From Bacteroidota bacterium (GTDB lineage: Bacteria; Bacteroidota; Bacteroidia; AKYH767-A; OLB10), in NCBI GenBank assembly GCA_031418215.1, contig JANOXC010000118.1:25388-89387 (forward strand): a stretch of DNA of 64,000 bases, given 5' to 3'. Of this stretch, positions 12,326 to 36,339 are shown piece by piece. Made by a program: the position numbers and the translations under genes. The notes beneath the pieces are model-generated. The model saw only the letters and a program-made list of their open reading frames with translations, did no database searches and was not told the DNA's origin. Within the stretch, counting starts at the first letter, position 1, and the number at the start of each line of letters is the position of its first letter.

Positions 12326-12338
12326 TATTTATTTCCTG

Positions 12339-16792: not shown

Positions 16793-16793
16793 T

Positions 16794-19517: not shown

Positions 19518-19544
19518 AAACAAAGTAAATTTCTTCAACCAGTC

Positions 19545-19610: not shown

Positions 19611-19687
19611 CAATTGTAACCTTCAGCCTAATTCCCTTTATCGTAACTTTGATCAATAAATATTAAACCAACCTTAAACCACATTTT

Positions 19688-20722
19688 TTGAGCGCAGTAT
19701 CCGTCAAGCGTTTTATTCCTTACCTGTCTTGGTGGTTGCTAATCACCATCATACAGGTTGTAGTTGTACACCGTTTTAATATCGAATGGAAAATTGCAAT
19801 GGTTGATGCTTTATTGTCGACTGCTATTTTAGCTGTTGCTTCCTATGTAATCACCAACACGTTTCGCTACTACACGCCGGCATCAGGAAAATATATATAC
19901 GGCCTGGCCATAGTTGCTGCATTAACTATCTTGTGTGTTGCCGTTATCACCCACACACTGAATTATATTTTTATTGACAATAATGCATATATATATTTTC
20001 TCGGCCAGTCGGTTCCTGTTCGTTTTATGCTTGCCTTGTTGATGATAGCATTGATGGGCGTCACCAGCTGGTTGCGTTTTTATATGAAAGAACAGACAGA
20101 AAATAAAAAGCGGAAAGATGATGCAGGTTTGTTGTTGCGCGAAGCTGAATTATCAAAACTCCGTCAGCAATTGCAGCCACATTTTTTATTCAACAGCCTG
20201 AACAGCATCAGTTCGCTTGCCGGCAGCCGTCCCGAAGAAGCACGAAAAATGATACAACAACTTTCCGATTTCCTGCGCGGCACATTGAAAAAAGACGAGC
20301 AACAGTTAGTGCTGCTCTCAGATGAATTGCAGCATTTGCAATTGTACCTCGATATTGAAAAAGTTCGTTTTGGCCATCGCCTCACTGTTGAAATAAACTG
20401 TGATGAAACAACAGCAAAGATGAAATTACCATCATTGCTATTGCAACCCATTGTAGAAAATGCCATCAAGTTCGGATTATATGATACCACCGATGATATC
20501 ATCATCAGTATTAAAGCATCAACGGTTAATCAACAACTGACCGTTATTATTGAAAACCCTTTTGATCCCGCAACGGCGGGAGGACAACAACCGGGCATGG
20601 GCTTTGGCCTCGGCTCTGTGCAACGCAGACTATATTTATTGTACTCTAGAAATGACTTGCTGGCTGTTGAAAAAGAAGGAAGCCTTTTCCGAACCATCGT
20701 TAAAATACCGCAGAACCAATGA
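19688..20722 (+). CDS. LytS/YehU-type sensor histidine kinase
   Basis: The apparent start is TTG. An N-terminal 4-TM domain is followed by the His_kinase (PF06580) motif LRQQLQPHFLFNSLNSISSL, then an HATPase_c region (IVENAIKFG, GFGLG). It overlaps the response-regulator gene by 4 bp. Confidence 0.8.
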   Translation: MSAVSVKRFIPYLSWWLLITIIQVVVVHRFNIEWKIAMVDALLSTAILAVASYVITNTFRYYTPASGKYIYGLAIVAALTILCVAVITHTLNYIFIDNNAYIYFLGQSVPVRFMLALLMIALMGVTSWLRFYMKEQTENKKRKDDAGLLLREAELSKLRQQLQPHFLFNSLNSISSLAGSRPEEARKMIQQLSDFLRGTLKKDEQQLVLLSDELQHLQLYLDIEKVRFGHRLTVEINCDETTAKMKLPSLLLQPIVENAIKFGLYDTTDDIIISIKASTVNQQLTVIIENPFDPATAGGQQPGMGFGLGSVQRRLYLLYSRNDLLAVEKEGSLFRTIVKIPQNQ

Positions 20723-21456
20723 AAGTAATCATCATTGACGATGAGCCGCTTGCAAGGGAACTCATCAAAGAATATTTGCAGTCTTATGCTGCATTGCAAA
20801 TCGTACAGGAATGCAATGATGGCTTTGAAGGTTTTAAAGCCATTCAACAGCATCAGCCTGATCTGATTTTTTTAGATGTGCAGATGCCAAAAATCAATGG
20901 CTTTGAAATGCTGGAATTGGTGGAACAACCGCCGGCAATAATTTTCACCACCGCCTTTGATGAATATGCCATCAAAGCATTTGAAGCGCATGCTGTAGAT
21001 TACTTATTAAAACCATTTAGCAAAGAGCGTTTCGACAAAGCTGTAGGAAAATTTTTACAAACAGGAAATACCAAAGCAGTGACGAATGACTTATTGACCG
21101 AAGTTACACCTAGAGTACTCGGGGCTGAAGAACAGCAACGAATAGTAGTGAAATCCGGGAACAACATCAAAATACTTCCGTCTCATGAGATTATATATAT
21201 AGAAGCTTATGACGATTACGTAAAGATCTTCACCAACAGCGATGTCTACCTGAAAAAGAAAACATTGTCCTATTACGAAACCGTTCTTGCCCGTGATTTT
21301 CTAAGGGTGCACCGTTCTTATTTGATACCGCTTGCACAGATCACCCGCATTGAAGTCTTTGAAAAAAACAGTCATGTGGCCATCCTTAAGAATGGAAACA
21401 AAATTCCTTTGAGTCGAAATGGTTATGCTGCGTTGAAGGAGAAACTAGGAGTTTAA
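20719..21456 (+). CDS. LytTR-family response regulator
   Basis: The receiver domain reads MKVIIIDDEPLARE...DLIFLDVQMP. The C-terminal LytTR DNA-binding domain reads IVVKSGNNIKILPSHEIIYIEAYDDYVKIFT...FLRVHRSY. Confidence 0.85.
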   Translation: MKVIIIDDEPLARELIKEYLQSYAALQIVQECNDGFEGFKAIQQHQPDLIFLDVQMPKINGFEMLELVEQPPAIIFTTAFDEYAIKAFEAHAVDYLLKPFSKERFDKAVGKFLQTGNTKAVTNDLLTEVTPRVLGAEEQQRIVVKSGNNIKILPSHEIIYIEAYDDYVKIFTNSDVYLKKKTLSYYETVLARDFLRVHRSYLIPLAQITRIEVFEKNSHVAILKNGNKIPLSRNGYAALKEKLGV

Positions 21457-21494
21457 CAAATCAGAGAAGAAACAATCTTATCATCATTTACTAC

Positions 21495-21650
21495 GTCATT
21501 GCGATGAGCTTGAGTATTGTTATTGCAATTGAAAAAAGATGAGCGTAGAGGCAATCTCACAAATAGTACCAGTAGCATCATCATCCTGCAAATTGTCTGA
21601 ACTATGATTCTTGGGATTAAATGATTTCTATGATTTTTATTTAGCAAAAT
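21495..21650. repeat. composite interspersed repeat (family A plus family C tail)
   Basis: The family A core (gtcattgcgatgagc...gatgagcgtagaggcaatctc) is followed by ...aaatagtacc...caaattgtctgaactatgattcttgggatta. The family C tail recurs at about 27125 and about 34625. Confidence 0.65.
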
Positions 21651-21665
21651 CATTGTTATACCTCC

Positions 21666-21848
21666 TCATTTACCAGCCGCTGTTTCAAATGTTGTGGTAA
21701 CAAATTGTGACCTCAAGTCAGAAAGTTCCGTTTTTGTTAATTCAAACATAAAATCTTCCGGAAACCGTTCCAAATTTCTTTTTGCCTGTTGCTTCAATGC
21801 CTTGGCAGGCACATCATACAATAATGCTAAGTCAGCATCAAGCATCAC
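21666..21848 (-). pseudogene. ORF6N-domain gene remnant (N-terminal 60 aa only)
   Basis: The sequence MLDADLALLYDVPAKALKQQAKRNLERFPEDFMFELTKTEL matches the N-terminal ORF6N (KilA-N-related) domain of the intact paralog at 27406-27882. It is truncated directly at the repeat insertion. Confidence 0.55.
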
Positions 21849-22140
21849 ATTATTCCCACTAATGTAAAAAATTCATGTTTCGTATTCGGGTTTTATCAAT
21901 TCTCTCATTGTCTTTCAATTCAAGCTATTTAAAAATATTCTGCAAAAACATATTCCTAATTAATAGAATCTTTTTTCTTAAATGAACTTTATTAAAAAAA
22001 CGGAAATAATAGAAATACACTGCTAAATAATTATTTCTACATGGGAAATAAAATTACTCGTTTTGAAAATATTCTTTCAATATAAAAATGAAATGATATT
22101 AATATTAGTATTTTTATTCTTCTAATCTAAAATCTTTATT

Positions 22141-22941
22141 ATGAAAAATAAACGTCGCCCACGAAATAGTAAAACAGTAGCGGAAACCCTGAGAGAAAAT
22201 ATGGAATATATATTTTCAAATACGCCCGGTAATGATCTTACTGAAGCAAGCAAGAAGGCGTGGCTGAATTATATTATTGATTTTGAAGAGTATCATAAAA
22301 ATGCAAAAGATGTAACCGTTTGGGAATTTATTGGTAAGCCCCCTTTCGTTCTCATAGATAAGCTGGACAGTGCATCAATATCACTTGCTTTAGATGCCAT
22401 TTATGAAAAAATGGCATCTAATAATGTGTTACTTGACTTTTGTGTTGTGTATCCCGATGACGTGATTTACAAGTTTATTACAGAAGAGTTGTTTCAACAT
22501 AAAATTCAGGACATTAAGATTCCGGGCGGTAACATTTGCTTTATCTATGAAGAGTTTCATCCGAATCACGACTATGACTTAAGAAGATATAGTAGTGAAC
22601 ACCTGGAGTGCTTATTCAAGCCTGATGTTATTAGAAGTCATTTATCATTTTATGCAATGAATAGTATTTACCTTAATGATAAATTATGTACTAAAGATTC
22701 GCTCGCTGATTTTATCATTGATTTTCATAATTTACATAAGAGGGCGGAACTAAGAAATCATACTATAACCGACTTGACATTTGATCTTGAATTGAATTCC
22801 GGAAAAGTAAGCGTGGATTTTAATTGTTGCTTATTTTTTAACGATGGCGGGCATTTAGAAAAAAAAGAAAATGTAACTTTAAATTACTTATTGGAATATG
22901 ACTTTTGGATTTTGAAAAAAATTGAAAGTTCTTTATTCTAG
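22141..22941 (+). CDS. hypothetical protein (AT-rich island orphan)
   Basis: A 266-aa ORF with a strong AT-rich upstream region and codon usage far more AT-rich than the flanking core genes. No motif was recognised. Confidence 0.5.
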   Translation: MKNKRRPRNSKTVAETLRENMEYIFSNTPGNDLTEASKKAWLNYIIDFEEYHKNAKDVTVWEFIGKPPFVLIDKLDSASISLALDAIYEKMASNNVLLDFCVVYPDDVIYKFITEELFQHKIQDIKIPGGNICFIYEEFHPNHDYDLRRYSSEHLECLFKPDVIRSHLSFYAMNSIYLNDKLCTKDSLADFIIDFHNLHKRAELRNHTITDLTFDLELNSGKVSVDFNCCLFFNDGGHLEKKENVTLNYLLEYDFWILKKIESSLF

Positions 22942-23026
22942 CTTAGAATATAAGCAATTCTATGTACTCCTGCGATTTATCATATCTGGTTGCTTAACAC
23001 AAAACATACTAAACCTTAAATTAAAA

Positions 23027-23416
23027 TTATCGGTCGATCAGGTATACCTTGATATTTAACTTCAGCCACTGTCCTTTCCATTCTTTCGTTTCCAGCGCTC
23101 CGAAAAGTTGTTTGCCTGCATCCAGTAAACGTGCCGTGCTTTCATTGATGTGCATGGGAAGGTATCCCAGTTTTATTTTATCAGCGGTATAGATAGCTGT
23201 TGCAAAATGATCGAACTGATTTTCCGGTTCGCGTTTTAAGATGAAACGATCGCCGGGTTTTAAGGTGGGCTCCGTTTCTTCTAAGTTCAGGTGTGACGTG
23301 CCTGCAATGTGGCATTCAAGCATGATGAGCTCGCGGACAAAGGGCATTAATGCCTGACTCTTCCCCTGGATGAGTGCTAATAATCCCGGACTGATCTGTA
23401 TTATTTCACTGCTCAT
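23027..23416 (-). CDS. HIRAN-domain protein
   Basis: A 129-aa protein. It shows the IAGTSH(L) motif, the LKREPENQFDHFATAIY motif and the KLGYLPMHINESTARLLDAG motif. Together these match the HIRAN fold consensus (G.ryy / lvREP.N.yD.nAi.V / iGYvp...a..l..lld.g). Confidence 0.55.
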   Translation of the reverse strand: MSSEIIQISPGLLALIQGKSQALMPFVRELIMLECHIAGTSHLNLEETEPTLKPGDRFILKREPENQFDHFATAIYTADKIKLGYLPMHINESTARLLDAGKQLFGALETKEWKGQWLKLNIKVYLIDR

Positions 23417-24209
23417 TGTTCAGCAACTGTTGAATCATTTTTTCCAAGGTTGCTTTTTCATCCATGCAGGCTGAAATAGCATTAAGCGTTTCATTGTTCT
23501 CATTATTAACCCAGCCTTGATCTTCTATATATTCCGAAATTGTGAATGGAAACATTACTTTGATTTCCTGCAGCTTTTGTATCAGTTTAGAAAAGTAAGC
23601 TGCCAACTGCTCATTCTTCTTCTTCAATTGTTCAACCCCGGTAATGAGGTCTTCACTCTTCAAACTAAGCTCTGCAACAGCTGCCAATGCCCTCATTGCT
23701 TCGAGGTCATTTAATGAATATGCCTCCGATAATTTCAGCCACAATGCTGCACGGTTGATATCGCCGGGATATATATCAGGATGCAACTGTTTAGCCAGTT
23801 TATAATAAAGGAGTTTTATCTCTTTGATCTCTTCCTCCGTCAATTTTTCCAGGTTGATAAACATTGATGCTGCATTCAGGATCTCTGCCTCTTTTTTCAG
23901 TTGTTTTAAATGCTCCTGCATTTCCAGCTCAATCAATTCATCAATCAAATCTTCATTAACATCATCATCTCTGTTAATCGCTGCCTGTATTTTTTCCAAC
24001 TTTAATTTCAATCGGAAAACGGTAGTTTGAATACGTAATAATTCCAACCTGTTATTTCCAACAGCTACCAAATACCTCGATTCCAGGTAAGGCTTTACAT
24101 GATACAATAAGTGGCACTTCTCCTCCTCTGCTCTTGCAATTTCATTACAGAGCGCCTCCTGCTGTTTTATCGCTTCCTGGTGTTCATGGGTTAATGCCGG
24201 GGTCGTCAT
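23406..24209 (-). CDS. J-domain (DnaJ-like) coiled-coil protein
   Basis: A 267-aa protein. The central segment LYYKLAKQLHPDIYPGD...LWLKLSEAYSLNDLEAM has the J-domain helix II, the HPD tripeptide and helix III. Long heptad-rich regions flank it. It overlaps the HIRAN gene by 11 bp. Confidence 0.5.
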   Translation of the reverse strand: MTTPALTHEHQEAIKQQEALCNEIARAEEEKCHLLYHVKPYLESRYLVAVGNNRLELLRIQTTVFRLKLKLEKIQAAINRDDDVNEDLIDELIELEMQEHLKQLKKEAEILNAASMFINLEKLTEEEIKEIKLLYYKLAKQLHPDIYPGDINRAALWLKLSEAYSLNDLEAMRALAAVAELSLKSEDLITGVEQLKKKNEQLAAYFSKLIQKLQEIKVMFPFTISEYIEDQGWVNNENNETLNAISACMDEKATLEKMIQQLLNNEQ

Positions 24210-24301
24210 CGTGGAGGAAAGATAGTAAAAAATTAAATCAAGGAATTGGCGTCTACGCTACCGCGTGCGAATCTTTTCTAATATACGAATAAAATCTTAG
24301 C

Positions 24302-25030
24302 CGTCATTGCGATGAGCGATAACCATATTAATGTAATTGAAAAAAGATGAGCGAAGAAGCAATCCCATCATGCATACAACAAGCATCATGCACATACTTC
24401 CCAACAAAAGATTGCTTCGACATTCACTGCTTCTCAGTTCATGTCTCGCAATAACGGAATATTAGAACGTCATTGCGCCGCGCCGTCGGCAAGCCTTATG
24501 CCTCCGCGAAAGCTTTAGCAACACGCAGATGGCGGCCGATGGATGAGGGGGAATGTTGTTTCTGAAATCGAATAAGGTTGAGCGAAGAAACAATCTCATT
24601 AATAGAACCTGAGGTACCACTTACTATTCATGAGATAACCTCACTCATTCTTCGTTCGCAATGACAGTAGATGAAAATTTTAAAGTGGCAAAGTAATCCT
24701 TTCAACAAGCGAACCGTCATTGCGAGCCAATTGGACCAATATGCTCTTACGAAAAACATAAAGTGGCGAAGCAATCTTTTCAAAAGTACCCGATCTGCTA
24801 TTCATAAGATTACTTCCCTCATTCTTCCCTCGCAATGACGTTAGATGAAAATTTAAAGTGGTGTAGCAAAGCAATCCTTTCAATAATTCAACCGTCATTG
24901 CGAGCCACTTATACCAATATGCTCTTACGAAAGACTTAAAGTGGCGAAGCAATCTTTTCAATAGCACCTCTTCTTCTATTCATAAGATTGCTTCACTCGT
25001 TCCTCGCTCGCAATGATGATAGAGGTGCCT
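24302..25030. repeat. dense cluster of family A interspersed repeats (about 7-8 copies, both orientations)
   Basis: The module cgtcattgcgagc...aaagtggcgaagcaatc(t/c)tttcaa and its reverse complement (gattgcttc...gcaatgac) occur repeatedly. There is no convincing ORF here. Confidence 0.75.
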
Positions 25031-25082
25031 CCTTCATAATTAATTTACCCGGCTGTATTATCATTACCTCAAACTTAATGAT

Positions 25083-25913
25083 ATGAAACCACTTTACATT
25101 CTTGTCTTATTATTAAACATAACCCTCACTGACATGGCCTCGGCCTCCGGTAACAAGGTAATTACAGAAATAGATTCAGTTAGTTTTAAAAGATATAAAG
25201 AAGGTTTTAAAACAACACCGCTCCACTCTCCATCCCATCAGTTATATCTCGACAGCCTTTTGAGTTTACAACCGGATAACGCATATTACTGGCAGCAGAA
25301 ATCAATGCCTTTATATAAAGAAAGAAAGTATGAGCTGGGACGACAATATGTTGACAGTGCCGTTAAATTCAATGAAAAGCAATACCTCGACTACCGCGCC
25401 TTCCTGAAATGCATTTTTGAAAAATCATACCGGGCCGCTTTGGAAGATTTTGAATTGGTAAAACAAAAAACAGGTTTTGCTTTTGTAATGGGACATTCTT
25501 ATGATTTTTATATGGGGCTCTGTTATCTCCAACTCAACAACTTTGATAAAGCCGATTCATTGATTCAATATTCGCTAACCTGGAATGAAAAAAACAGCAC
25601 AGGCGGACATTACCTTGAATATTTTTATTTGGGTGTGGTGAAAATGGAAAAAAACGAAACAGACGAAGCTTTGGAAAATTTTGATAAAGCATTGCAGATC
25701 TATACACAGTTTCCCGATGCATTGTATTTCAAATCTGTTTGCCTGGAGCAATCAGGGAAAAAAGAAGAGGCGCTAGCTGTTGCCACAAAAGGGCTTACCT
25801 ATTTTAACCAGGGATATACCAATAATGAAGACAATGTTTTTTACGAAGATTATCCTTATCAGCAGAGAAGGTATAGTTATGAGTCGAGGGTGAATTATCT
25901 GGGAAGGAAATAG
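25083..25913 (+). CDS. secreted tetratricopeptide-repeat protein
   Basis: A 276-aa protein with a signal peptide. TPR-like helical pairs are present (AYYWQQKSMPLYKERKYELGRQYVDSAVKFN, YFYLGVVKMEKNETDEALENFDKALQIY). Confidence 0.65.
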   Translation: MKPLYILVLLLNITLTDMASASGNKVITEIDSVSFKRYKEGFKTTPLHSPSHQLYLDSLLSLQPDNAYYWQQKSMPLYKERKYELGRQYVDSAVKFNEKQYLDYRAFLKCIFEKSYRAALEDFELVKQKTGFAFVMGHSYDFYMGLCYLQLNNFDKADSLIQYSLTWNEKNSTGGHYLEYFYLGVVKMEKNETDEALENFDKALQIYTQFPDALYFKSVCLEQSGKKEEALAVATKGLTYFNQGYTNNEDNVFYEDYPYQQRRYSYESRVNYLGRK

Positions 25914-26146
25914 GCTTATTCAAAAATAATTGGTGTGGCATAATAAGAGCCCGTATTAATTTTATTGCGTCCTAACGATAAAACCGGTCGCAATTTGCGA
26001 CTAGTTCATTCATTTCATTCTTTCGTAACTCAAACATGAAATCTTTTGGAAAGCCGGGGGAATTGTAAAAATAAAATACGCCACTGGTCATGCCCTTTTG
26101 TATATAAAATTTAGCTTTTAAAATTTTACATTTTCAAATCTTATTA

Positions 26147-26609
26147 TTAATCATTCTCATCCTTTCTTTTGTATCCAACCTTTTTTCCAGGGGTACTTAA
26201 TGGCAACATAAGTTGTCTAATGGCTTCAAATATTTTATTAATTGCGTCATCATGCATAGCTAATCGGTTTTCCAATTTTTTCAGTTGAGCCGAAAGTTCT
26301 TTATGTGAATCCAGCAGTTTTCTCATTCTTACAAAAGCACGCATTATTGCAATATTTACTTCTCTTGCCCTTTTACTTTTTAGTATTCCCGGAAAGCATT
26401 GCAACCCCTTGCTCTGTAAAAGCATAAGGAAATGCCCCTCCGAACTTGCCTTTAGATGGTATCACATTTTGTGATACCAGAACACTAACTACTTTGTTTG
26501 TTAATACAAACATAAAATCCGGAGGAAAACTTTCAATGTTCCTTTTAACAGCTTGTTTCAATGCCCTGGTTTCTACGTTGTATAATTGAGCAATGTCAAA
26601 ATCAAGCAT
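26147..26609 (-). pseudogene. ORF6N-domain gene with internal frameshift
   Basis: The N-terminal piece (26373-26609: [34 protein letters not shown]...[12 protein letters not shown]) joins the next frame of 26147-26425 (...[25 protein letters not shown]...) to make an ORF6N protein of about 170 aa. The two ORFs overlap at a short homopolymer (about 26376-26392). Confidence 0.6.
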
Positions 26610-26933
26610 AATTTTTCTTCGCGGATAAAATAAATCTGTTGCGTAATGCTTTCTTCTCTTAAAATTATTTTTGAACCCATATCTTTTGCCTGAGGTATGA
26701 CAAATTTTTAAATTAAATTATTAATATCACGTATTTCGGTTTGATTAATTCTATCATCGTAATATTTGCACCCGTGCAGGATAAAAATCCACCATTTTAT
26801 TAATGCCTCTTAACTCATCCATTTGGGGTTGCATGTTTCGAAATTTTATGATCAATAAATAGTGCGTCAAAACTATACTATAAAAAAATAATTAAAAATG
26901 GAAGAAGGTTGCTAGAAAATTTATCAGGCAATT

Positions 26934-27175
26934 CGTCGTTGCGAGGAGTTAGCGCTTTCAGGTTTGTGACCTCGCCCCCTGCCCCTCTCCAGGGGAGAGG
27001 GGAGGTCGACTACCGATTATTCATTAACCCTTACATTAATGCGATGAGCGTGAGCTTATATTTTCTGATTGAAAAATGTTGGGCGAAGATGCAATCTGAT
27101 CAATAGCACCTTATATGTCATCATTCTGCACATTGTCTGAACTATGATTCATGTGATTATATGATTTTGCGTTAG
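26934..27175. repeat. composite interspersed repeat (families A, B and C)
   Basis: The family A core is interrupted by a GC hairpin (cccctgcccctctccaggggagaggggagg). It is then followed by ...caatagcacc...cacattgtctgaactatgattcatgtgatta. Confidence 0.65.
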
Positions 27176-27189
27176 CTAAGTTCTTTTAA

Positions 27190-27320
27190 ACATCCCGATT
27201 TTCCTTCGCGGATGGATTGTGGGTTGCATCAAATGCCGGATGGCTTCGAAAAGCGCCTGTATTTCTTTATCATGCTTAATGAATCTCAGCGCTCCGTCGA
27301 CAAAGCTATGGCGTAATCTT
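27190..27320 (-). pseudogene. ORF6N-domain gene remnant (C-terminal fragment)
   Basis: The minus-strand translation ...SFVDGALRFIKHDKEIQALFEAIRHLMQPTIHPRRKIG parallels the C-terminus of the 26147 copy (HDDAINKIFEAIRQLMLPLSTPGKKVG). No N-terminal part is present. Confidence 0.45.
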
Positions 27321-27405
27321 GAGCCATAGTAAGGCGAATTAAATAGTCCGGTTATTTATCCTTTGTAATTCTATAACCAATCCTATTCCTATTTTTAATT
27401 TCCGG

Positions 27406-27882
27406 CTAAATAAGTTCCTTTATTATTTTATATATATTCCCTATATGCTGATTACTTGAAGATTGCTCCAGCTCTATTTTCTCAATTTTTTTCAATAGCT
27501 CTTCATATTCCTTTATTAACCCGCGCATTTTTACAAATATTCTCATGATCTGAATATTTACTTCAATGGCCTGATCGCTGTTCAAAACACTTGAAAGCAT
27601 GGCAACCCCCTGTTCTGTGAATGCCATTGGCATATACCTGGTTCCACCCCAATTTGAGGTGCCAATTTGGTACCTCAAGATTTTCAGGTCTGCAGCACCC
27701 AATTCAAACATAAAATCTTCCGGAAACCGGGTACTATTTCTTCGCACTGCCCTTTTAAGTGATTTAGTCTCCACTCCATATAATACAGCAAGGTCAGCAT
27801 CAAGCATTACTTTTTGTTTTCGGATAATTATGATTTTGCTGAAAATATTTTCTTCAGAATAAACTGTTCTTTTAGGCATCAA
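27406..27882 (-). CDS. ORF6N-domain protein (KilA-N-related, phage anti-repressor-like), intact copy
   Basis: A 158-aa protein. The conserved N-terminal block reads KVMLDADLAVLYGVETKSLKRAVRRNSTRFPEDFMFEL...[23 protein letters not shown]. The C-terminus is a coiled-coil. Confidence 0.7.
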   Translation of the reverse strand: MMPKRTVYSEENIFSKIIIIRKQKVMLDADLAVLYGVETKSLKRAVRRNSTRFPEDFMFELGAADLKILRYQIGTSNWGGTRYMPMAFTEQGVAMLSSVLNSDQAIEVNIQIMRIFVKMRGLIKEYEELLKKIEKIELEQSSSNQHIGNIYKIIKELI

Positions 27883-28759
27883 TTTTAAATTGCAATTTTT
27901 TCAGCGGGAAAAATAGCTAAGAAAATAATTGAAAATTAGGTGAGTAGAAAACCCTTTCTATTTCAATTAACGTAAGGAGCTGATATTTAAACAAATTTTT
28001 TTCTCTGATCCCTTTGCATATTACAATTAGGACACAGGCAAAAAAATGACAAGCCCATTAAATCTTCTCTGATTCATGCAAATAGTTTTTAAAGACGAAC
28101 TAAGTTGCATCCGCGATAACAAATAAGAAATAAAAGGGCGAGGCGTTTATTTTGACCTGTACAGTCCGCATTGTTTTACCACCGTTGTGTCGGTCACTCG
28201 GTTGGTATCATCCATTGGATGATTCGAAATGCTTTGTAAAGATGAGGAATATTATTTCAACTTTGCAAATGTTTTTTTGATTTTGGTTAATTAATACTGA
28301 TTTCAAATCGATCAATTTGACTAATAAAATGATGATAAAAGAAAAAACGGTTGCTCCCTTTTTAGATTTTTCCTTTCTAAAATTTCCCTTTCACATTAAA
28401 GGTAATCTAATTATAGAGTTTGATCAAGGTAATTTCGTATTATCGAAGATTGCCAAATTAATCTACATAAATGCGGGTTAATCCTTTAGTTTAACAATTG
28501 CATTCATTAATTCTGTAGGGTTGCTACAAACGGCAGGCCTAATCCTCTGTTAGTCTTGAAATTTATCAGTTTTGCGATGTTATACTTTCTGTTTTTCAGC
28601 TCTATATCAAGTACTTTTTCAACTTTGTAAACAAAAAATATTCACGGGTGGAAAAAGTTGGATATTTATTATCAATCAATGTTTGTTTCAATTGAAGTAC
28701 GTTTATTTACAAAATGTGAATTCTATGTTTTTTCCTATCCCCAAATCATTAATATAATT

Positions 28760-30736
28760 TTACAAAACATTAAATCCAATCATCTCTAAGTAATTATATG
28801 TTGAATCATAGTATTCTGCTTTTCTTGTATGGTCTTCAATGTTACCTTCAGGAACAAAAATCACCATTCCTTGTCGGGCTCTAGTTAAGAGAACCCTATA
28901 AGCATTAATTAAATATTTCTTTCTTTCCGGTTGATTTATATTTTGCCATTTGCTGCCTTTGAATTCAAAAGTTTTCCAACCAACTTCAGCATATCTTAAA
29001 TCGCCATCCCATGCAACACAAGCCCAGTCAAGTTCAAGTCCCTGAACATCAAATTCAGTTGCGACATCTTCTAAATAAAATGAAGAACGAACATCATCCT
29101 TTCCATCCAAAAACCAATTCACGGGATTCATTGGGGATTTAACGTCAATTGCAAACGGTTTTAACCGCTGTGCTTGTGAAGAAACAACCATTCCATAGCG
29201 TTCACTTCCTCTTGCTTTTTCTTTCAACCAATTTTTCGCTTTAAATAAATCTCTTGTTAACACTATTGGATAGTTTGCTGAAATATTTGATAGGGTTTTT
29301 TTAGCTTTTTCAATATTCATGTCTAAAATATTTTTTATGAATAGAGAAAGGTTTTCAGCTCTGAATGAACGCATAGAAACCGAAAGGTGTAAATCAGAAT
29401 TAAATTTTACCTCTGATTTTTCTTGTAATGTTTTTATTGAATTAACAGCCGAATATTCTGAGTCAGTCAAGTTAGGTGAGATGTAAACTTCCCAATCTGA
29501 AAATTTGCTGTTAATAGCATTTAACCACTCCGATATGCCAGCTTCGCCAGTATTTATTTCTTGCCCTCCTCCAACTAAACAGACAATTACAGCCCAATCT
29601 TTGTGTCTATCAAGACAAGAAATTAAAAATTCAGGTTCAGAAAAATCAAAGTCAAGTTGATTTTTTTTCTGCTTCATGAACTTAACCGTTTGTTCTTTAT
29701 TCCAAGCCCTTTGTGCTTCATCAAAAATTGCCACATGGTCGTAAGGTGGATTAGGGTCAACAAGGTAAGCGTCTCTATAATGATGAATTATTTGTATAAA
29801 TGCCTTAACACCCTCCTTCGCTTTCCCTTTGGTTAATTTATTTCCCAGCTCTTTTTCATTCTTGACCTTATCCCTTGTTAACGCCTCTTGAAGAATAGCA
29901 ACCAAAGGTGCGTTGCCAGACAAATAGACACTAGTATTTCCTTTTTCTTTATCAAGATGTGTTGTTGCAACTTTTAACCCAACAAGAGTTTTGCCTGCAC
30001 CTGGGACTCCTGTTACAAAACAAATAATTTTTTTAGGGGTGGCTTTTGCAATACCAATTAATTCAGAAATTGCTTTTGTTGTGTCTCTTAAATTTTTTGC
30101 TGCTGCATCACTTCTTGTTATTTCATCAACTGTGTGAGTATTATAAAGAGAAATAGCTGCTTCAATTATTGTTGGTGTAGGCGAATAGCTTCCATTAGCA
30201 AACTCATCTCCATCTATTTTTTTACCATCGTTAAAAAATAACAGTGTGTTTTTTATTGCTTCATTCAAATTATCCTTGTTAGTTTTTATTGGCAATATCA
30301 AATTATCATTGTGTGATGTTGTTAGGATTTCAATAATAGAATTTTTTGATTCTGTTGCAATAAGTACTGGTGCTAAAACAATTTTATGACTTGGCTTGTG
30401 AAAATTTTTCAAGTCCAGTGCATAATCCCACACTTGTTCAATTTGGTATTGATGAAAATTATTCTCGCCTACTTTAAACTCTATTACAAAAACAACATTT
30501 TTAATAATTACAATGGCATCAACTCTCTTCCCCATTCTTGGAATAGAGAATTCAAAAAATATTACCCCTGTGTAACCATTAATTGCTTTTTTCAGAATTG
30601 GTATCTGTTGTTCCCATGATTTATTTTGGTTTGAAGTAGAATCAAATTGGTTTGACATTGTAATCAAGCCAACGATTTCCTCTGTGCTCTTTATTAAAAA
30701 AGATTCAATATTGTCCTTGAAATAGTAATTCAACAT
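28760..30736 (-). CDS. DUF2075-family nuclease-helicase (Nhi-like): N-terminal PD-(D/E)xK nuclease plus SF1-type P-loop ATPase
   Basis: A 658-aa protein. The N-terminal restriction-endonuclease-like motif is ...FFEFSIPRMGKRVDAIVIIKNVVFVIEFKVG (E...D...ExK). Walker A is ICFVTGVPGAGKTLVG and Walker B with the Q-type residue is HVAIFDEAQRAW. The C-terminal motif INAYRVLLTRARQGMVIFV equals SF1 helicase motif VI (L.TRAr). The gene is isolated in AT-rich noncoding sequence. Confidence 0.65.
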   Translation of the reverse strand: MLNYYFKDNIESFLIKSTEEIVGLITMSNQFDSTSNQNKSWEQQIPILKKAINGYTGVIFFEFSIPRMGKRVDAIVIIKNVVFVIEFKVGENNFHQYQIEQVWDYALDLKNFHKPSHKIVLAPVLIATESKNSIIEILTTSHNDNLILPIKTNKDNLNEAIKNTLLFFNDGKKIDGDEFANGSYSPTPTIIEAAISLYNTHTVDEITRSDAAAKNLRDTTKAISELIGIAKATPKKIICFVTGVPGAGKTLVGLKVATTHLDKEKGNTSVYLSGNAPLVAILQEALTRDKVKNEKELGNKLTKGKAKEGVKAFIQIIHHYRDAYLVDPNPPYDHVAIFDEAQRAWNKEQTVKFMKQKKNQLDFDFSEPEFLISCLDRHKDWAVIVCLVGGGQEINTGEAGISEWLNAINSKFSDWEVYISPNLTDSEYSAVNSIKTLQEKSEVKFNSDLHLSVSMRSFRAENLSLFIKNILDMNIEKAKKTLSNISANYPIVLTRDLFKAKNWLKEKARGSERYGMVVSSQAQRLKPFAIDVKSPMNPVNWFLDGKDDVRSSFYLEDVATEFDVQGLELDWACVAWDGDLRYAEVGWKTFEFKGSKWQNINQPERKKYLINAYRVLLTRARQGMVIFVPEGNIEDHTRKAEYYDSTYNYLEMIGFNVL

Positions 30737-31130
30737 TAATTATTCTTTAGATTATCAAATCTGGCGCATTTAAACTTCTGTTCGATTTGGTATGAACGTC
30801 AGTCATATTACTTAAGTGTACAGTACGAAATCGATAAAATCGTTGGTTGTCGGTTAAAAGGAAATGAAAACTTATAATTTCTTCCAAATATACCCAAAAA
30901 CTACCTCCAGTAAATAGATAAACGCACCACTCATCATTCACGCTTTATTATGAATAACCAGCAGCCTTAATGAACCTTAAAAACTTTTAACAGTGTTTTG
31001 AATAAAACCAACCCCCGCAAAAATTTACTTATCCCGGTTTCAAAAAAAACAACAGGGAAAGCATGCATTAAAAAAACATCCCTTCCCTGCAGTTAAACTC
31101 ATCAACAAGTCTTCATCCGTTAATAATGAA

Positions 31131-31772
31131 TCAATCCTTTTTCTCCGGCTTGTAAAAATCCCCTTCTGTATCTTCATTGTCGCGGATCTTGCTGCTGTAA
31201 GCCATCCTGGCTTGTCGTTCACTGGCAAACATTTGCTGTATGCCTTCATCGTCTTTTTGAAAGGTCATGCTGTTGTTGATGGAGATGGAAACAGCAAATT
31301 CCTCCACGGCATGGTCGGTGCCGATGTAGGTGAAGGTCCAGCGGCTTTCTTTTAATTCTTCGATGAGTTTTTTAATCGTGGCTCCGGAAAATTCACGGGA
31401 GGAGTTTTCTTCACCGTCGGTGAGGATGGTCACCAATACGTTGTAATCCCTTCGACCTTCCAGCACCTTTCGGAGTTTATTCATACTAAAACCCATGGCA
31501 TCGTATAAAGGGGTGGAGGCGTCGGGGTTGTATCGTCGCGCATCAATTTGTTCCAGCTTGCTCACGGGGTCAATGAAATGAAGCATTTTATTGCCAAGTC
31601 CGTTGAAGGAAACGAGGGAGATGAAATGTTCCTGCTCAGGAAATTGTTTTTCAATGCCTTTAATGGTCTGCACAATTTCATTGAAGCCTTTGATGATGTT
31701 TTTTTTAATGGGTTCCATCGAACCGCTTTCGTCTAAAATGATGAGGTTGTGTACTTCATGTCTGTTTTTCAT
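31131..31772 (-). CDS. von Willebrand factor type A (vWA) domain protein
   Basis: The MIDAS motif is LIILDESGSM (DxSxS), followed by downstream T and D residues (ILTDGEEN). It is about 213 aa from the internal ATG. The longer TTG-initiated ORF to 31838 is less likely. Confidence 0.7.
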   Translation of the reverse strand: MKNRHEVHNLIILDESGSMEPIKKNIIKGFNEIVQTIKGIEKQFPEQEHFISLVSFNGLGNKMLHFIDPVSKLEQIDARRYNPDASTPLYDAMGFSMNKLRKVLEGRRDYNVLVTILTDGEENSSREFSGATIKKLIEELKESRWTFTYIGTDHAVEEFAVSISINNSMTFQKDDEGIQQMFASERQARMAYSSKIRDNEDTEGDFYKPEKKD

Positions 31773-31924
31773 ACTGTTTGAATTTAAATGGTTAAAAAAT
31801 AAACTGAATGAATGTTTCCTGCAGTTGAAAAAAAGCAACAGTAAAGCAGTGCGGTAATTTAAAGAGTGGGATGAAAAAAAATCCCATTAAAAGCCCTTTT
31901 ACTAACAGTACGAAATTACAGAAA

Positions 31925-32060
31925 ATTGTGATTGACAAATAAAATGGCTGATAAATAATTAGCCAATGTTACCACATATTGGCTCCCTCTCCTTCGGAGA
32001 GGGCGGGGGGTGAGGTAATAGCACAAATCGAATCAAAGTGGTATGGGCCAATTCCACTGA
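31925..32060. repeat. family B interspersed repeat (unexpanded copy)
   Basis: The sequence ...aattagccaatgttaccacatattggctccctctccttcggagagggcggggggtgaggtaatagcac contains a hairpin ccctctcc/ggagaggg and a G7 tract. It is homologous to 35940-36215. Confidence 0.65.
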
Positions 32061-32074
32061 CAATGCAAAAAAAA

Positions 32075-33895
32075 TCAATCCTTCAACTTCATCACCTCCC
32101 AACCAAACCGTTTTCTTGCAATTGCCATGCATTCTATAAAAGTGTTTTTGGTTTTTAAAAATCCGTAACGTTCTTCCAGCATGTATTGCTCATACTTTTT
32201 CTGTTCGATGAGTTCGGAGAGTATCATCCTGATTTTTTTCGTGGCCGTTTCTTTTACCAAAGAATTAAAGTCCGTTTCTACGGAAAGGTTGCGTCCGTAA
32301 TTATCGAGTAGCTTCTCAATGTTTTCTTCATTGAACAATCCCTGTATAAGCAATGCCCAAACAAGGTTACGTGCCGAGCGTACGAAGAAATATTTATTCT
32401 CCCCGCGGCTCTCAATTTCTTTGATGGCAGCCCCGATGCGGAATTGTATTTTGTAAGCTAAAATTATTTTACGCGTGTCGGCTTTGAGAAATTCTTTCTG
32501 AAATGTTTTATCGTAAATGGCATCTTGTTCAAACACTTTTCCCATATCAGAAACCTTGTCCACCTCGCCCTGCACAGCTAAAAATGTTTGTGCCAGCTTT
32601 CTGATCTTTACTTCTTTCATCTGTTCAATACCCATCTCCCCGAAGTCGGCATCACTTAAGTTGGCAAAGGAGTTTTCCTGCCGTTCGTAGAAGATGCCGT
32701 CCTTGCGGAACTTGTCATCAAACTCCAGTTGTATCATGTCGTTGGCGCGCAGGTTCCAGGGCTCAACGGGATTTTGTTTGTTGTTGGAAATGGTAACCTG
32801 CGTCACAAATTCCTGAGAGCAGTTAGTGATGATCTTTACAATGACTTCAATCTTCTTCAGCGTCTTTTCGTAATCATTGTATCCGGGCTGCTTGCGCAAG
32901 TCGTCAATGAATCGCGATAAAGTTGTAATTGTCTGTGCGCCGTTCAACACACGCGGTTCCACAATCTTGATGTTCCCGCCTTCACCTTCCAGTTTCTCTG
33001 CAAAAAGTGTTACGCCATTATGATGAAAGGTAAAATACTCCGGACTTACTTTTTTATGGACAACAATGTCGCGCAATGATTTTTTAATGGCTTGGTTCGG
33101 CGCTAATTCATCGGTCAATCCTCCACGAATATTTTTTTCGAAGAGACGCTGTTTCATGTCGTTGTGCATCTTATACAAATCGAAGATGTGAATGAAACCC
33201 AGGCTCATTTTTTCGTTGCCTGATGCAATTTTCTTCAGCGGTGTATTGAGTGCAATGTCATACTGAAAGGTTTTTTTCGTCCTTGCTGTCTGATTAATCT
33301 TCTTCGTTTCATTGGAGATGTACTGTATGGTCAGTGTGATGTCTTTGCTGTCGAAAAACTGGTCGATAAAATGTTTTTTTGATTCCAGTTCTTCACGCAG
33401 GCTCTCCAAGACCTTACTGCTCTCGGCACTCTCGGGGTCTCCGTTAAAAACAAAACAGATGTAAACTTTGTTGATGAGGTCTTTGTATTCTTCCAGCTCC
33501 ATCTTAAGCTGTGTAGTTAGTTTGCCGGTATAGGCGGTTGAGCCATCACCGAAAATTGTTTCAATACCGTCTTTGACCAGCCGTGTGTAGGCGTCTTTAA
33601 ACAGCTCGAAGTTTTCGCCCCATTCAAAGTGGTACAGGTACAGGTTTTTGGCGCCTCTTTCGATGTAATAGGCTTCTATCCCTTCTTCATTTTTACCGAT
33701 GGAACAGTAGGGCAGTACAGCCTCCACCTTGCGTTCAAATTTATCAGCGATAAAGAGCGGAGCAAAGTAGTCTTCCTTGTGCCCATAATGCTTTGATTTG
33801 TATTTGAGGTAGGTTTCCGTTAATCTTTCAAGGGTGATGGACATGGTCTGTACGGTTGGTTGGTAAATATCAATAGAGGTTAATTCGTTTTTCAA
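32075..33895 (-). CDS. AIPR-like (abortive-infection phage-resistance family) protein, tentative
   Basis: A 606-aa protein. The central block HHNGVTLFAEK...KIVEPRVLNGAQTITTLSRFID carries an NGAQT motif that I associate with AIPR/DGQHR-type domains. The N-terminal ~280 aa and the helical C-terminal ~200 aa were not recognised. The call rests on my recollection of the family motif. Confidence 0.4.
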   Translation of the reverse strand: MKNELTSIDIYQPTVQTMSITLERLTETYLKYKSKHYGHKEDYFAPLFIADKFERKVEAVLPYCSIGKNEEGIEAYYIERGAKNLYLYHFEWGENFELFKDAYTRLVKDGIETIFGDGSTAYTGKLTTQLKMELEEYKDLINKVYICFVFNGDPESAESSKVLESLREELESKKHFIDQFFDSKDITLTIQYISNETKKINQTARTKKTFQYDIALNTPLKKIASGNEKMSLGFIHIFDLYKMHNDMKQRLFEKNIRGGLTDELAPNQAIKKSLRDIVVHKKVSPEYFTFHHNGVTLFAEKLEGEGGNIKIVEPRVLNGAQTITTLSRFIDDLRKQPGYNDYEKTLKKIEVIVKIITNCSQEFVTQVTISNNKQNPVEPWNLRANDMIQLEFDDKFRKDGIFYERQENSFANLSDADFGEMGIEQMKEVKIRKLAQTFLAVQGEVDKVSDMGKVFEQDAIYDKTFQKEFLKADTRKIILAYKIQFRIGAAIKEIESRGENKYFFVRSARNLVWALLIQGLFNEENIEKLLDNYGRNLSVETDFNSLVKETATKKIRMILSELIEQKKYEQYMLEERYGFLKTKNTFIECMAIARKRFGWEVMKLKD

Positions 33896-34174
33896 AATGC
33901 CGATCTATAAACCTGCCTTGACGAGCCGTAAAAACCACACGATAAAAAACTTCTGCTCCCTGCCGCCTGCAACTGTTTTATTGCCGAATTACATACAACA
34001 TAATGAGGCAAAAGACCTTGCGAAAGATAGTGAGTTCCGTTTGAATTTAAAGTTTCGACCACATTTTTTTGATTAACAAAACGGACCATTTCAATAGGCT
34101 GATTTCACCCACTCATAACGCCTCATTCCTCGAGTACTCGGGGAAGCCCGATGTGTTTCACTAACCTCACAGTG

Positions 34175-34447
34175 TCATTCAGCAGTGGTAGGATCGATGA
34201 TTGTTGAAACACTGCTCACAGAATTAGCAGGAAATCCACCTTGCTTTGCATGTTCACGCACCATCTCTTCGTTTGGTGCATTATAGACGCAATAAATCTT
34301 ATCGGTAGTAACATAGCTGTGCACCCACTGGATCTGAGGACCCATTTTGCGCAATTCGCCACAGGATGTTTGTGAAATGCCTTTCAATTGTTCGGCTGTC
34401 ATTTTTCCTGCTCCTGGAATTTCCCTTTCAATTACATACTTAGGCAT
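34175..34447 (-). CDS. DUF4242-like small protein
   Basis: A 90-aa protein (MPKYVIEREIPGAGKMTAEQL...YVTTDKIYCVYNAPNEEMVREHAKQGGFPANSV). The layout fits DUF4242, a family of alpha+beta proteins about 90 aa long. Confidence 0.45.
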   Translation of the reverse strand: MPKYVIEREIPGAGKMTAEQLKGISQTSCGELRKMGPQIQWVHSYVTTDKIYCVYNAPNEEMVREHAKQGGFPANSVSSVSTIIDPTTAE

Positions 34448-34760
34448 GATTTTTTTTATTAGAAAAATTTTTATTTAATACTCTGGCCTTTTCGATTTCG
34501 CCCCGTTTAAAAAAGTGGTTGCTGGCCTCCACGTTAATACTAAGTATTAAAAATTGAATTACTGTAAAGTCAAAGATATACGATTGGGGGTAGGTTCCAA
34601 ATTTGCGGCATTTACTAAACATGAAGTTTCAAATTGTCTGTACTATGATTTTTGTGATTCGGCTGATTAAAAAGATCTGCTTTTGAGTTAAAAGGAAAAT
34701 ATTTGAATTGTGAATATACTATTCGTAAATTCGCATTAATTCGTTATTTGTTGATACATT

Positions 34761-35723
34761 ATGAGAAGACGTCAATTCATCAAAGGCTCCGCCATCATCG
34801 GCTTATCATCTGTTGCGCCCGATATTTTAAAAGCAGCATCAGGTCTGCTCGAAACCAATACTGCCCGAAAGGTTTATCAAATATTAACCGCCAGTAAAAC
34901 CATGGTGGGCACATTGCCTGTCCTTCGTGCTTTTGCAGGAGACAACAATGATTATGTGTCTCCTTATGTTTTCTTTGATGAATTTGGGCCAGTTAAAGTA
35001 AATCCTAATGATAAACCGTTGCGTGTTGATGCGCATCCGCATGCAGGCATCATCCCAACAACTTATTTTCTCAATGGCAGCGGCCATCATAAGGACAGTC
35101 TGAATTACGATTTCCAGATCGGCAAAGGCGATTTCATGATGTTTACCTCCGGTCGTGGTGCCATACACATGGAAGAGACGGGTAAAAAATTATATGATCA
35201 GGGCGGACTGTACCATGGTTTTCAGATTTGGCTGAACATGCCTTCGAAATATAAATTTGTCAATCCCGCAACCGATGTATATCGGCCAGAGAAAATGGCC
35301 GAAGTCAATCAAAAAGATTATTCTGTAAAAGTTGTACTGGGAGATTTCATGGGTGCTAAATCAAAAATTGAAACCCTTTTCCCGGTTTTTTATTTTCATC
35401 TCAAACTGAAACCCGGCTGTAAACTCAACATTCCGGTTGATGCAACGCACAATGCTTTTATCTATATCATCAAAGGAAAAGTAGAAACAGAAGGCCGAAC
35501 AGAAGTGCGCACCAACCAGGTAGCCCTTTTTGAACGCGGCAAAAATTCAATCACGCTTTTTACAAATGAAGAAACGGAGTTGCTAATGTTAGGAGGCAAG
35601 CCACACAACGAAGCCGTATTCGCTTATGGCCCTTTTGTAATGAATACGGAAGAAGAAATCAGAAAGTGTTACGATGATTATCGCACAGGGAAGATGGGTA
35701 ATCCGGATTTGGTGAATAAATAA
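34761..35723 (+). CDS. pirin-family cupin protein with twin-arginine (Tat) signal peptide
   Basis: The Tat motif is MRRRQFIKGSAIIGLSSVAP. The pirin N-terminal cupin histidines are in AHPHAGI ... HKD. The 320-aa length is typical for pirin-like proteins. Confidence 0.8.
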   Translation: MRRRQFIKGSAIIGLSSVAPDILKAASGLLETNTARKVYQILTASKTMVGTLPVLRAFAGDNNDYVSPYVFFDEFGPVKVNPNDKPLRVDAHPHAGIIPTTYFLNGSGHHKDSLNYDFQIGKGDFMMFTSGRGAIHMEETGKKLYDQGGLYHGFQIWLNMPSKYKFVNPATDVYRPEKMAEVNQKDYSVKVVLGDFMGAKSKIETLFPVFYFHLKLKPGCKLNIPVDATHNAFIYIIKGKVETEGRTEVRTNQVALFERGKNSITLFTNEETELLMLGGKPHNEAVFAYGPFVMNTEEEIRKCYDDYRTGKMGNPDLVNK

Positions 35724-35972
35724 ATGTAGAATTAAGAATGCAGAATTAAATTCCTAAATCCATTAGGAGAACCGTAATCTACTCCCTCTCTCTGCGCCAA
35801 AGCTGGAGTTAAGGCGGCACGTTGTTGGTGTGGGGGAGGTCAAAAGCAACATCCCTTTTCCTAAATCATCCAACAAGTATAATTCACAGCCCCCCTTCTC
35901 TCATTGATATTCCCGATAGCTATTGGGAATCCGATACGGTAATTAGCCAATGATTTATTAAAGATAAATTGG

Positions 35973-36208: not shown

Positions 36209-36339
36209 TGCGAATGTTAAATAGAACAAAAAACATAACATCTTCCCCTAATTCCACGTTAAATACCCGTTAAACACTGATCCCTGCTGCAAAAGAACTT
36301 TGTGGTATTGCTTCACATCTCACTACCTTTGTTACAAGA

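Follow-up and report, generated by a model that had tools for sequence, protein, structure and literature searches.

The 64,000-nucleotide (nt) stretch of a Bacteroidota genome analyzed here (lineage OLB10; contig JANOXC010000118.1, positions 25,388 to 89,387; from here on, the window) contains an interval of about 13 kb, at 21.5-34.7 kb, in which a motif of about 30 nt occurs three times. An earlier reading made from the letters by themselves (the sequence-only reading) had taken this interval for two tandem mobile elements inserted at one att-like site. We found that the motif belongs to a family of palindromic repeats dispersed over many phyla, whose full members consist of two inverted arms that are either joined by a short loop or bracket a small gene of the GxxExxY family. 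The interval is probably a long-resident, mosaic hotspot of defense and accessory genes rather than two tandem elements, and the motif copies in it are solo arms of the dispersed family. At this hotspot, which lies between a LytTR response regulator gene and a DUF4175 block, genes would have been gained, lost, and left to decay one at a time.

The motif copies belong to a dispersed family of palindromic repeats

A pattern search of the window placed the motif on the plus strand at 21589-21618 (copy 1), 27129-27158 (copy 2), and 34630-34659 (copy 3), with 0, 2, and 0 mismatches to the pattern given in the sequence-only reading; 100 shuffles of the sequence yielded no match to the pattern, and the three same-orientation copies reported there are confirmed. 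All three copies share an 18-nt core, ATTGTCTGNACTATGATT, a sharp outer edge, and N4-TGATT units at a 9-nt period.

Using ATTGTCTGNACTATGATT as the query, we scanned a collection with one genome per prokaryotic species and obtained at least 131 matches in at least 120 stretches of DNA from many phyla. By our own arithmetic, 17 fixed bases in 596 Gb, counted on both strands, lead one to expect about 70 hits by chance; at least 104 of the 131 matches listed carry the next GATT unit in register, so most of them are true family members. Alignment of the matches shows nothing conserved to the left of ATTG and TGATT units every 9 nt on the right. The hosts among the matches listed are mostly Bacteroidota, and the others include Ignavibacteriota, Cyanobacteria, Nitrospirota, Planctomycetota, Poribacteria (matches on two complete chromosomes), Armatimonadota, and Desulfobacterota. 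One Melioribacteraceae genome (Ignavibacteriota) has at least ten exact copies on six contigs, and arms can be as dense as 11 in 8 kb. Carriers of the family include the isolates Spirosoma oryzae, Chitinophaga niastensis, and Labilibaculum filiforme. The sequence-only reading had itself named the prevalence of the motif as one of two points on which its proposal would turn; these results show a common repeat that is unrelated to island ends. We also considered a phage origin of the motif and rejected it: viral contigs contain 15 exact matches, but about ten of these lack TGATT units, and the viral matches are mostly due to chance.

A full member of the family has two inverted arms, each made of ATTGTCTGAACTATGATT followed by two to four N4-TGATT units at a 9-nt period. 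In one form a short loop joins the arms, for a total of about 100 nt; in the other the arms bracket a gene for a GxxExxY protein of about 125 amino acids (aa) with the PD-(D/E)XK fold. The outer-to-outer lengths of paired arms peak at 94-109 nt and 468-474 nt. An inverted partner lies within 1.5 kb in 51 of the 131 matches listed, and about 60% are solo arms. Full elements fold strongly, with z-scores of -8.1 and -5.2 for two short-form examples. Their edges show at most a palindromic AT dinucleotide, and some flanks extend the palindrome. When searched against Rfam, full elements give sub-threshold matches to generic, miRNA-like hairpins or nothing.

To place the window copies in this family, we used a profile built from 104 foreign arms. 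Its matches in the window are exactly the three copies (nhmmer values in Table 1), which identifies them as members of the dispersed family. They are arms without a counterpart: none has a partner arm on the minus strand, a hairpin (z near 0), or any similarity to GxxExxY beside it, and no RhuM remnant was found next to them. No further copy or partner arm turned up on either strand of the window in relaxed searches with a 17-nt core allowing three mismatches, with arrays of GATT units, or with the family profile.

Copies 1 and 2 resemble each other far beyond the motif. They are 90% identical over 50 nt and share about 170 nt in all (21494-21660 versus 27034-27200), because each has a repeat of a second family, D2, directly to its left, and the D2 repeat and the arm together make up this similarity. 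Copy 3 has just the core of about 30 nt in common with the other two, and the agreement lies mainly at positions that are conserved across the whole repeat family. The simplest view is that copies 1 and 2, with the adjacent D2 repeat and the 3' end of an ORF6N gene remnant, are paralogous and diverged copies of one local module, and that copy 3 is a family member of independent origin, either an insertion or a relic.

GxxExxY genes are physically tied to the repeat

We next compared the open reading frames (ORFs) near the motif all against all. One cluster dominates, with 17 proteins in 16 of the 120 loci listed, and it corresponds to GxxExxY/PDDEXK_3 (TIGR04256, 1.7e-38; PF13366, 2.5e-39). 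Among the 150 nearest neighbors of the motif, PDDEXK_3 is at the top with 15 members, followed by RhuM and the type I specificity subunit with three each; it is the only clearly enriched Pfam family, the remaining neighbors being unrelated housekeeping genes. No transposase or recombinase family is enriched among these 150 neighbors, and Y1_Tnp is not found among their 25 most frequent families. Relatives of ORF6N, the helicase, AIPR, and the other proteins of the interval were not detected in the 120 motif loci listed or in the 15 viral loci.

An inverted arm stands at the 3' end of 16 of the 17 GxxExxY genes, and a direct arm at the 5' end of 11. In 8 of the 17, the 3' arm extends to 11-12 nt beyond the end of the ORF, which places the stop codon inside the arm. 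Indeed, the AATCA repeats of the 3' arm code for KS.ESQKS.KS at the C-terminus of the protein, and AATCATAG supplies the stop codon, TAG. In L032, the one element that we read base by base, the start of the gene falls within the left arm, in its innermost TGATT unit; many other GxxExxY proteins begin with MI or MIxMI, which suggests that they too start in ATGATT units. Examples of the elements are L032:70-538 and L072:836-1303, representing the gene-bearing form of about 470 nt, and L027:112-217, representing the gene-less form of about 100 nt.

Identity among the arm-linked GxxExxY proteins is 59-89% across orders and phyla and does not follow taxonomy. The sole GxxExxY gene that we found in DNA not selected for the motif (L210) encodes a protein 40-47% identical to the arm-linked ones and has no arms. 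In the loci listed, GxxExxY is the only recurrent neighbor of the motif family, and the two are physically tied. Elsewhere, arms are frequent in type I restriction-modification (RM) operons and beside RhuM and HsdS genes.

Gene content at the locus varies among relatives

The source lineage is a poorly sampled one within Bacteroidota; judged from the names given to homologs of the response regulator, it would be Cytophagales-like. Exact look-up of the pirin product returned no match, and that of the response regulator and the helicase returned only contigs of 2-3 kb. In a 2-kb contig with 96% identity (L121), the response regulator is joined to the D2 repeat, the arm, and the ORF6N stub just as in the window. 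Three metagenome contigs of the same species (L125-L127) all break at window position 36180, inside a tandem array of 25-nt units, and are therefore uninformative on the interval.

More diverged loci show where the conserved flanks end. L122, the closest relative with sequence beyond the response regulator, has 81% nucleotide identity and keeps the order of the LiaF-like, DUF4288, histidine kinase, and response regulator genes; the similarity stops with the stop codon of the regulator. This module is common to L122, L123, and L124. The first feature after the regulator in L122 (4411-4614) is a 67-aa HsdM_N fragment, and such type I RM debris at the same chromosomal position fits a defense hotspot. 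On the other side, L128 (DUF4175 gene 87% identical) shares pirin and everything to the right of it, starting from window position 34728; upstream of pirin it carries, on the opposite strand, a paralogous pair of kinase and regulator genes. Given that relatives diverge right after the response regulator (L122) and right before pirin (L128), the description of the interval as accessory and variable stands.

A third relative, L129 (DUF4175 gene 83% identical), carries an AIPR gene directly beside the DUF4175 gene. Between the two there is no SCO4226-like gene, DUF805 RNA, arm, or pirin gene, and beyond AIPR there is no vWA or helicase gene; the genes for a Por-tail protein and for AIPR precede DUF4175. 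The AIPR genes of L129 and the window match at 76.6% over 1783 nt in blastn, compared to 76.0% for the DUF4175 core block. Judged from these values, AIPR appears to be as old as the neighboring core genes; having traveled with the core since before the lineages split, it shows that the proposed second islet is not a unit. Pirin, which lies outside the proposed island, is itself variable, since L129 lacks it. From the sequences compared, relating the window to L128 and L129 would require at least three separate gain or loss events. In four more distant relatives (L123, L124, L130, L131), the gene neighbors differ again.

L129 also contains a diverged arm on the minus strand (2154-2203; three core mismatches, nhmmer E 1e-3), about 160 nt past the AIPR stop codon.

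The composition of the interval is ordinary

The DNA between the repeats had been described as AT-rich. This is not borne out: its GC content is 0.368, with the window at 0.382 and the left flank at 0.374, and it ranks 15th among 102 windows of equal size. Low GC is limited to the 266-aa orphan (0.325), the helicase gene (0.333), and the ORF6N copies (about 0.355), while the HIRAN, vWA, AIPR, and SCO4226-like genes, at 0.42-0.45, are like core genes. The tetranucleotide signature of the interval is average (r of 0.93-0.96 against a window mean of 0.947), and no part of the window deviates more than the core DUF4175 gene. Neither GC content nor k-mer composition deviates as in an island.

Weighing a mosaic hotspot against other explanations

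Several observations weigh against a mosaic hotspot marked by solo arms. All three arms lie in the 13-kb variable interval and point in one direction, with none in the other 51 kb, and copies 1 and 3 stand about 130 and 60 nt from the ends of the similarity to L122 and L128, respectively, as island ends would. Neither a GxxExxY gene nor a remnant of one was found anywhere in the window, and our survey of the source genome for arms covers the 64-kb window. Among the seven relatives (L122-L124 and L128-L131), we found no empty site joining the LytTR module to pirin/DUF4175, and no relative at more than 90% identity spans the interval. At the full elements themselves, no target-site duplication or direct repeats were seen, nor any pair of filled and empty sites. 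Some of these observations have a plain explanation: the break points of the L122 and L128 similarity are simply gene boundaries, the chance that all three arms share one direction is one in four, and the confinement of the arms to the variable interval fits the frequent RM and defense contexts of the family elsewhere.

The explanation that survives best beside the mosaic hotspot, although we consider it improbable, is a residual form of the sequence-only idea, in which the arms are actively involved in gene turnover: segments would be captured or exchanged between dispersed arms, which would then mark real junctions without being classical att sites, either through homologous recombination or through the repair of cuts made by a GxxExxY-type nuclease whose gene lies elsewhere in the genome. 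The concentration of arms in the variable interval is consistent with this, as are the position of the diverged L129 arm, close to where the similarity between L129 and the window ends, and the frequency of arms in type I RM operons and beside RhuM and HsdS. Arms elsewhere also often sit exactly at gene boundaries; among the 131 matches listed, the arm edge overlaps the ATG of the next gene in 10 and a stop codon in 5. On the other hand, nothing supports recombination at arms directly, and the arms here, 45-50 nt long and just 68-90% alike, lend themselves poorly to homologous exchange. Elsewhere, most arms stand beside ordinary housekeeping genes, and the window contains no GxxExxY gene. Within the hotspot reading, the arms may still favor rearrangement at this locus, and solo arms would be decay products of full elements.

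We consider the tandem elements of the sequence-only reading very unlikely. That reading has the segments 21.6-27.1 kb and 27.1-34.6 kb inserted in tandem, with the integrase lost or acting in trans, and the copies would be attL, a hybrid att, and attR. In its favor are the three direct copies that bound and bisect a variable, defense-rich interval, the 90% identity of copies 1 and 2, and the loss of similarity to L122 and L128 no more than about 60-130 nt away from copies 1 and 3. The repeats, however, do not look like duplicated target sites, as the motif is a dispersed repeat of many phyla and copy 3 shares essentially family-conserved positions with the others. Nor is the content present or absent as a unit: in L129, AIPR is inherited with the core flank without vWA, helicase, or SCO4226-like genes, its supposed islet partners, and pirin varies although it lies outside. 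The deviant composition that is usual, though not obligatory, for an integrative island is missing, in both GC and tetranucleotides. The sequence-only reading had also suggested looking for the motif beside ORF6N genes and tyrosine or serine recombinases in other genomes. We found it in none of 80 metagenome loci (320 kb) with the closest homologs of the intact ORF6N (50-67% identity) at E<=1, and no such recombinase is enriched in the 120 motif loci listed. Its observation that the interval lacks a recombinase is correct, in that no ORF at 21.5-34.7 kb matches a recombinase family; a tRNA or tmRNA gene, the usual kind of integration target, is likewise absent from the window.

Least likely of all is a role of the motif in regulation or structure for which it would have been recruited, such as that of protein-binding TGATT boxes or a leader element, with selection keeping it at three intergenic positions. 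In favor of this, the core is conserved across phyla with its TGATT units in regular 9-nt phase, arm edges elsewhere often abut the next start codon, and copy 3 lies upstream of both the DUF805 RNA leader (minus strand) and pirin (plus strand). Against it, copies 1 and 2 border at their outer edges on another repeat and on a convergent gene's 3' end instead of a start codon, a simple scan around copy 3 found no promoter-like or terminator-like site, no Rfam 15 family matches the copies, and the arms overlap the coding ends of GxxExxY genes in full elements, which explains their conservation without a host function.

The mosaic hotspot thus remains the probable explanation. As a genomic island, the locus is ordinary and belongs to a known class, that of defense hotspots. 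Like these, it has a cluster of known and candidate anti-phage genes (ORF6N, DUF2075 helicase, AIPR, HIRAN), content that varies among relatives at the same chromosomal place, and pseudogene debris. It differs in that the interval has no integrase or mobility gene and no compositional signal, and in that AIPR is apparently as old as the core. The locus is better read as a slowly churning defense hotspot, and it holds a more general lesson: if a repeat is part of a dispersed family, short direct copies of it around a variable region are no evidence that the region was integrated site-specifically.

The repeat family compared to known mobile systems

The dispersal of the family, its distribution independent of phylogeny, and the coexistence of gene-bearing and gene-less forms suggest that it is, or was, mobile. 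We tentatively propose, as a possibility that falls somewhat short of probable, that it is a tiny selfish element of about 470 nt, consisting of the arms and the GxxExxY gene of about 125 aa, with the start and stop codons of the gene inside the arms, that crosses phyla. The predicted nuclease would mobilize the element and its derivatives of about 100 nt, by homing or in a REPIN/RAYT-like manner, and insertion would occur preferentially at gene junctions in RM and defense loci; the arms in the window would be fossils of such elements.

In REPIN-RAYT systems, REP doublets are mobilized by a REP-associated tyrosine transposase, and the pairs are described as lineage-specific and mostly inherited vertically (PMC3116915, PMC3337134, bioRxiv 10.1101/2022.05.22.493013). 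Like these, the arm family consists of inverted short repeats with a spacer, forms a hairpin of about 100 nt, has dispersed intergenic copies, and brackets a small nuclease-type gene, with no target-site duplication seen. In contrast, the bracketed gene is PDDEXK_3/GxxExxY and not a Y1 (IS200-like) transposase, arm sequence and gene both cross phyla (the latter at 59-89% protein identity), and the arms overlap the coding ends. We therefore rejected identity with REPIN-RAYT, since the gene is not a Y1 transposase and neither repeat nor gene is lineage-specific.

Another comparison is with miniature inverted-repeat transposable elements (MITEs) and their autonomous parents; examples are the Correia elements of Neisseria and RUP of Streptococcus pneumoniae. 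The arm family resembles them in its terminal inverted repeats, small size, non-coding multi-copy forms, and solo ends, and its gene-less copies of about 100 nt occur beside gene-bearing ones of about 470 nt, as if derived from them by internal deletion. Inverted termini, small size, and non-coding, multi-copy occurrence are features of the repeat family and not of the window copies. The family differs from MITEs in having no recognized transposase and no clear target-site duplication, and its gene-bearing form is merely about 470 nt long. Just as homing-endonuclease genes are patchy with respect to phylogeny, so too is the GxxExxY gene with its nuclease fold, which is placed precisely between the genes of type I RM operons; it comes, as homing genes normally do not, with long inverted arms and gene-less palindromes, and its nuclease role is a prediction from the fold.

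The attC sites of integrons are likewise about 100 nt long, imperfectly palindromic, and conserved at the ends but variable in the center, and they too lie at gene boundaries in a broad range of environmental phyla. The arms are conserved over at least 18 nt plus the TGATT units, compared to 7 nt in attC, and the window copies are 5.5 and 7.5 kb apart. By reading, TCTGAAC / GTTCAGA of the arms have two mismatches each to RYYYAAC / GTTRRRY of attC, and no IntI-type integrase is enriched nearby; attC was therefore rejected as well.

In the literature searched, as far as its text was accessible, neither the motif string nor a description of repeats around GxxExxY genes was found, and the link between such a repeat family and GxxExxY appears there to have no earlier description. 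PDDEXK_3/GxxExxY is a widespread family that often occurs within type I RM operons. In a 2012 survey of PD-(D/E)XK enzymes (PMC3424549), GxxExxY is listed as 'Unknown', with 'multiple transfers'. If the link with the arms reflects mobilization, it would give this orphan family a function and provide a nuclease-based counterpart of REPIN-RAYT. It would also explain spurious peptides that are read from arms, such as the product of the ORF at 21453-21653.

That 66-aa ORF reads across copy 1, and its product, in a translation by hand, contains ...NHRNHLIPRIIVQTI...

Genes, RNA elements, and other repeats of the interval

The features of the interval and its flanks are collected in Table 1. Pfam confirmed the HIRAN, DnaJ-like, TPR, DUF2075, vWA, and AIPR genes named in the sequence-only reading, as well as the LytTR system and pirin in the flanks. 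The DnaJ-like gene overlaps the HIRAN gene by 11 nt. PADLOC matches in the interval are PDC-S05, PDC-S41, AbiU, and PDC-M03B; the PDC models are PADLOC candidate defense models, in a library that covers 'known and candidate' systems, and an anti-phage role of the genes here is a prediction.

Table 1 Features of the interval and its flanks (window coordinates).
Feature	Position	Strand	Evidence and remarks
Left flank: LiaF-like, DUF4288, histidine kinase, LytTR response regulator	18268..21456	+	Pfam
D2-family repeat	21494..21581	+	CGTCATTGCGATGAGC...GAAGCAATC; directly left of arm copy 1
Repeat arm, copy 1	21589..21638	+	ATTGTCTGAACTATGATT then three units ending GATT; solo arm; nhmmer E 2e-12 (profile of 104 foreign arms); fold z 0.17, no significant hairpin
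ORF6N N-terminal pseudogene fragment	21666..21872	-	Pfam ORF6N 3.3e-19; 53% identical to residues 17-78 of the intact gene in tblastn; in-frame stop upstream
Orphan ORF, 266 aa	22141..22941	+	GC 0.325; no Pfam, PADLOC, or NCBIfam match
HIRAN-domain protein	23027..23416	-	Pfam HIRAN 4e-14; PADLOC PDC-M03B 2.3e-11
DnaJ-like (J domain) protein, weak	23406..24209	-	Pfam DnaJ 9.8e-6, below gathering score
Non-coding pile of D2-type repeats	24300..25040	both orientations	includes a 178-nt tandem duplication
TPR protein	25083..25913	+	Pfam TPR_2 7.1e-10, related TPR families
Fifth, tiny ORF6N fragment	26026..26064	-	NSPGFPKDFMFEL; tblastn 77% over 13 aa, E 0.018
Frameshifted ORF6N copy	26147..26621	-	Pfam ORF6N 5.6e-25 on 26373-26609; two tblastn segments in different frames
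D2-family repeat	27034..27121	+	directly left of arm copy 2
Repeat arm, copy 2	27129..27172	+	solo arm; nhmmer E 5.9e-10; fold z 0.46
ORF6N C-terminal stub	~27176..27320	-	translation ends ...LFEAIRHLMQPTIHPRRKIGMFKRT*
Intact ORF6N gene	27406..27882	-	Pfam ORF6N 2.1e-33; PADLOC PDC-S05 3e-56 (candidate defense gene)
SAM-I/IV riboswitch aptamer	28138..28237	-	Rfam RF01725, 48.6 bits versus gathering 41.1; all helices aligned
DUF2075 / Schlafen group-3 helicase	28760..30736	-	Pfam SLFN-g3_helicase 7.6e-84; PADLOC PDC-S41 8.1e-286; GC 0.333
vWA-domain protein	31131..31838	-	Pfam VWA 1.6e-9
AIPR / AbiU-like protein	32075..33895	-	Pfam AIPR 4.2e-25; PADLOC AbiU 2e-29
SCO4226-like gene	34175..34447	-	Pfam SCO4226-like 6.3e-30
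DUF805 RNA motif in SCO4226-like leader	34468..34537	-	Rfam RF03081, 53.8 bits
Repeat arm, copy 3	34630..34679	+	solo arm; nhmmer E 1e-8; fold z 0.05
Right flank: pirin 34761-35723, tandem array 35971-36189, DUF4175 36340-39735	34761..39735	+	Pfam, TRF

The decaying ORF6N series reported earlier was confirmed by Pfam, tblastn, and translation: an N-terminal stub, a frameshifted copy, a C-terminal stub, and one intact gene. The C-terminal stub resembles the C-terminus of the frameshifted copy, and its stop codon lies about 10 nt from arm copy 2. The fifth fragment, at 26026-26064, is also part of two repeat families at the DNA level, D4 and D8.

Short repeats of at least three kinds fill the intergenic gaps of the interval: the arms, the D2 family, and GC-rich CCCTCTCC...GGAGAGGG hairpins. 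Repeat finding gave five D2 copies, at 19544, 21494, 24302, 24533, and 27034, and a regular-expression search gave more. In all, this second interspersed family, GTCATTGCGA...GAAGCAATC, 30-90 nt long, has at least eight copies in the window in both orientations. D2-type sites lie at 19544-19631, 21494-21581, 24302-25040, and 26935-27121, and one copy falls within the conserved two-component module. Repeats of the D2 kind were also seen in Chitinophagaceae and Bacteroidales loci (L021, L078) and, in L011, directly beside an arm.

The SAM-I/IV aptamer sits alone in the 877-nt gap between the helicase and ORF6N genes, and the next ORF, 256 nt downstream, is ORF6N. This orphan aptamer is either a relic of a displaced methionine or S-adenosylmethionine (SAM) gene or an odd leader of a candidate defense gene. 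The DUF805 RNA precedes the SCO4226-like gene, of a nickel-responsive protein family, and not a DUF805 gene; a 60-aa ORF at 34440-34622 that overlaps this RNA is probably spurious. Copy 3 of the arm separates the DUF805 RNA and its SCO4226-like gene from pirin, which point away from each other.

Outside the interval, the left 17 kb of the window (1-17000) is as GC-poor (0.33-0.38) as the interval, and nearly all of its ORFs of at least 150 aa are on the minus strand. On the right, the DUF4175 gene is preceded by the tandem array at 35971-36189, in which a 25-nt unit, GGCTCCCTCTCTGAAGGGGTGCACA, is repeated 8.7 times; single GC-rich hairpins akin to this unit occur at 26983 and 31985.

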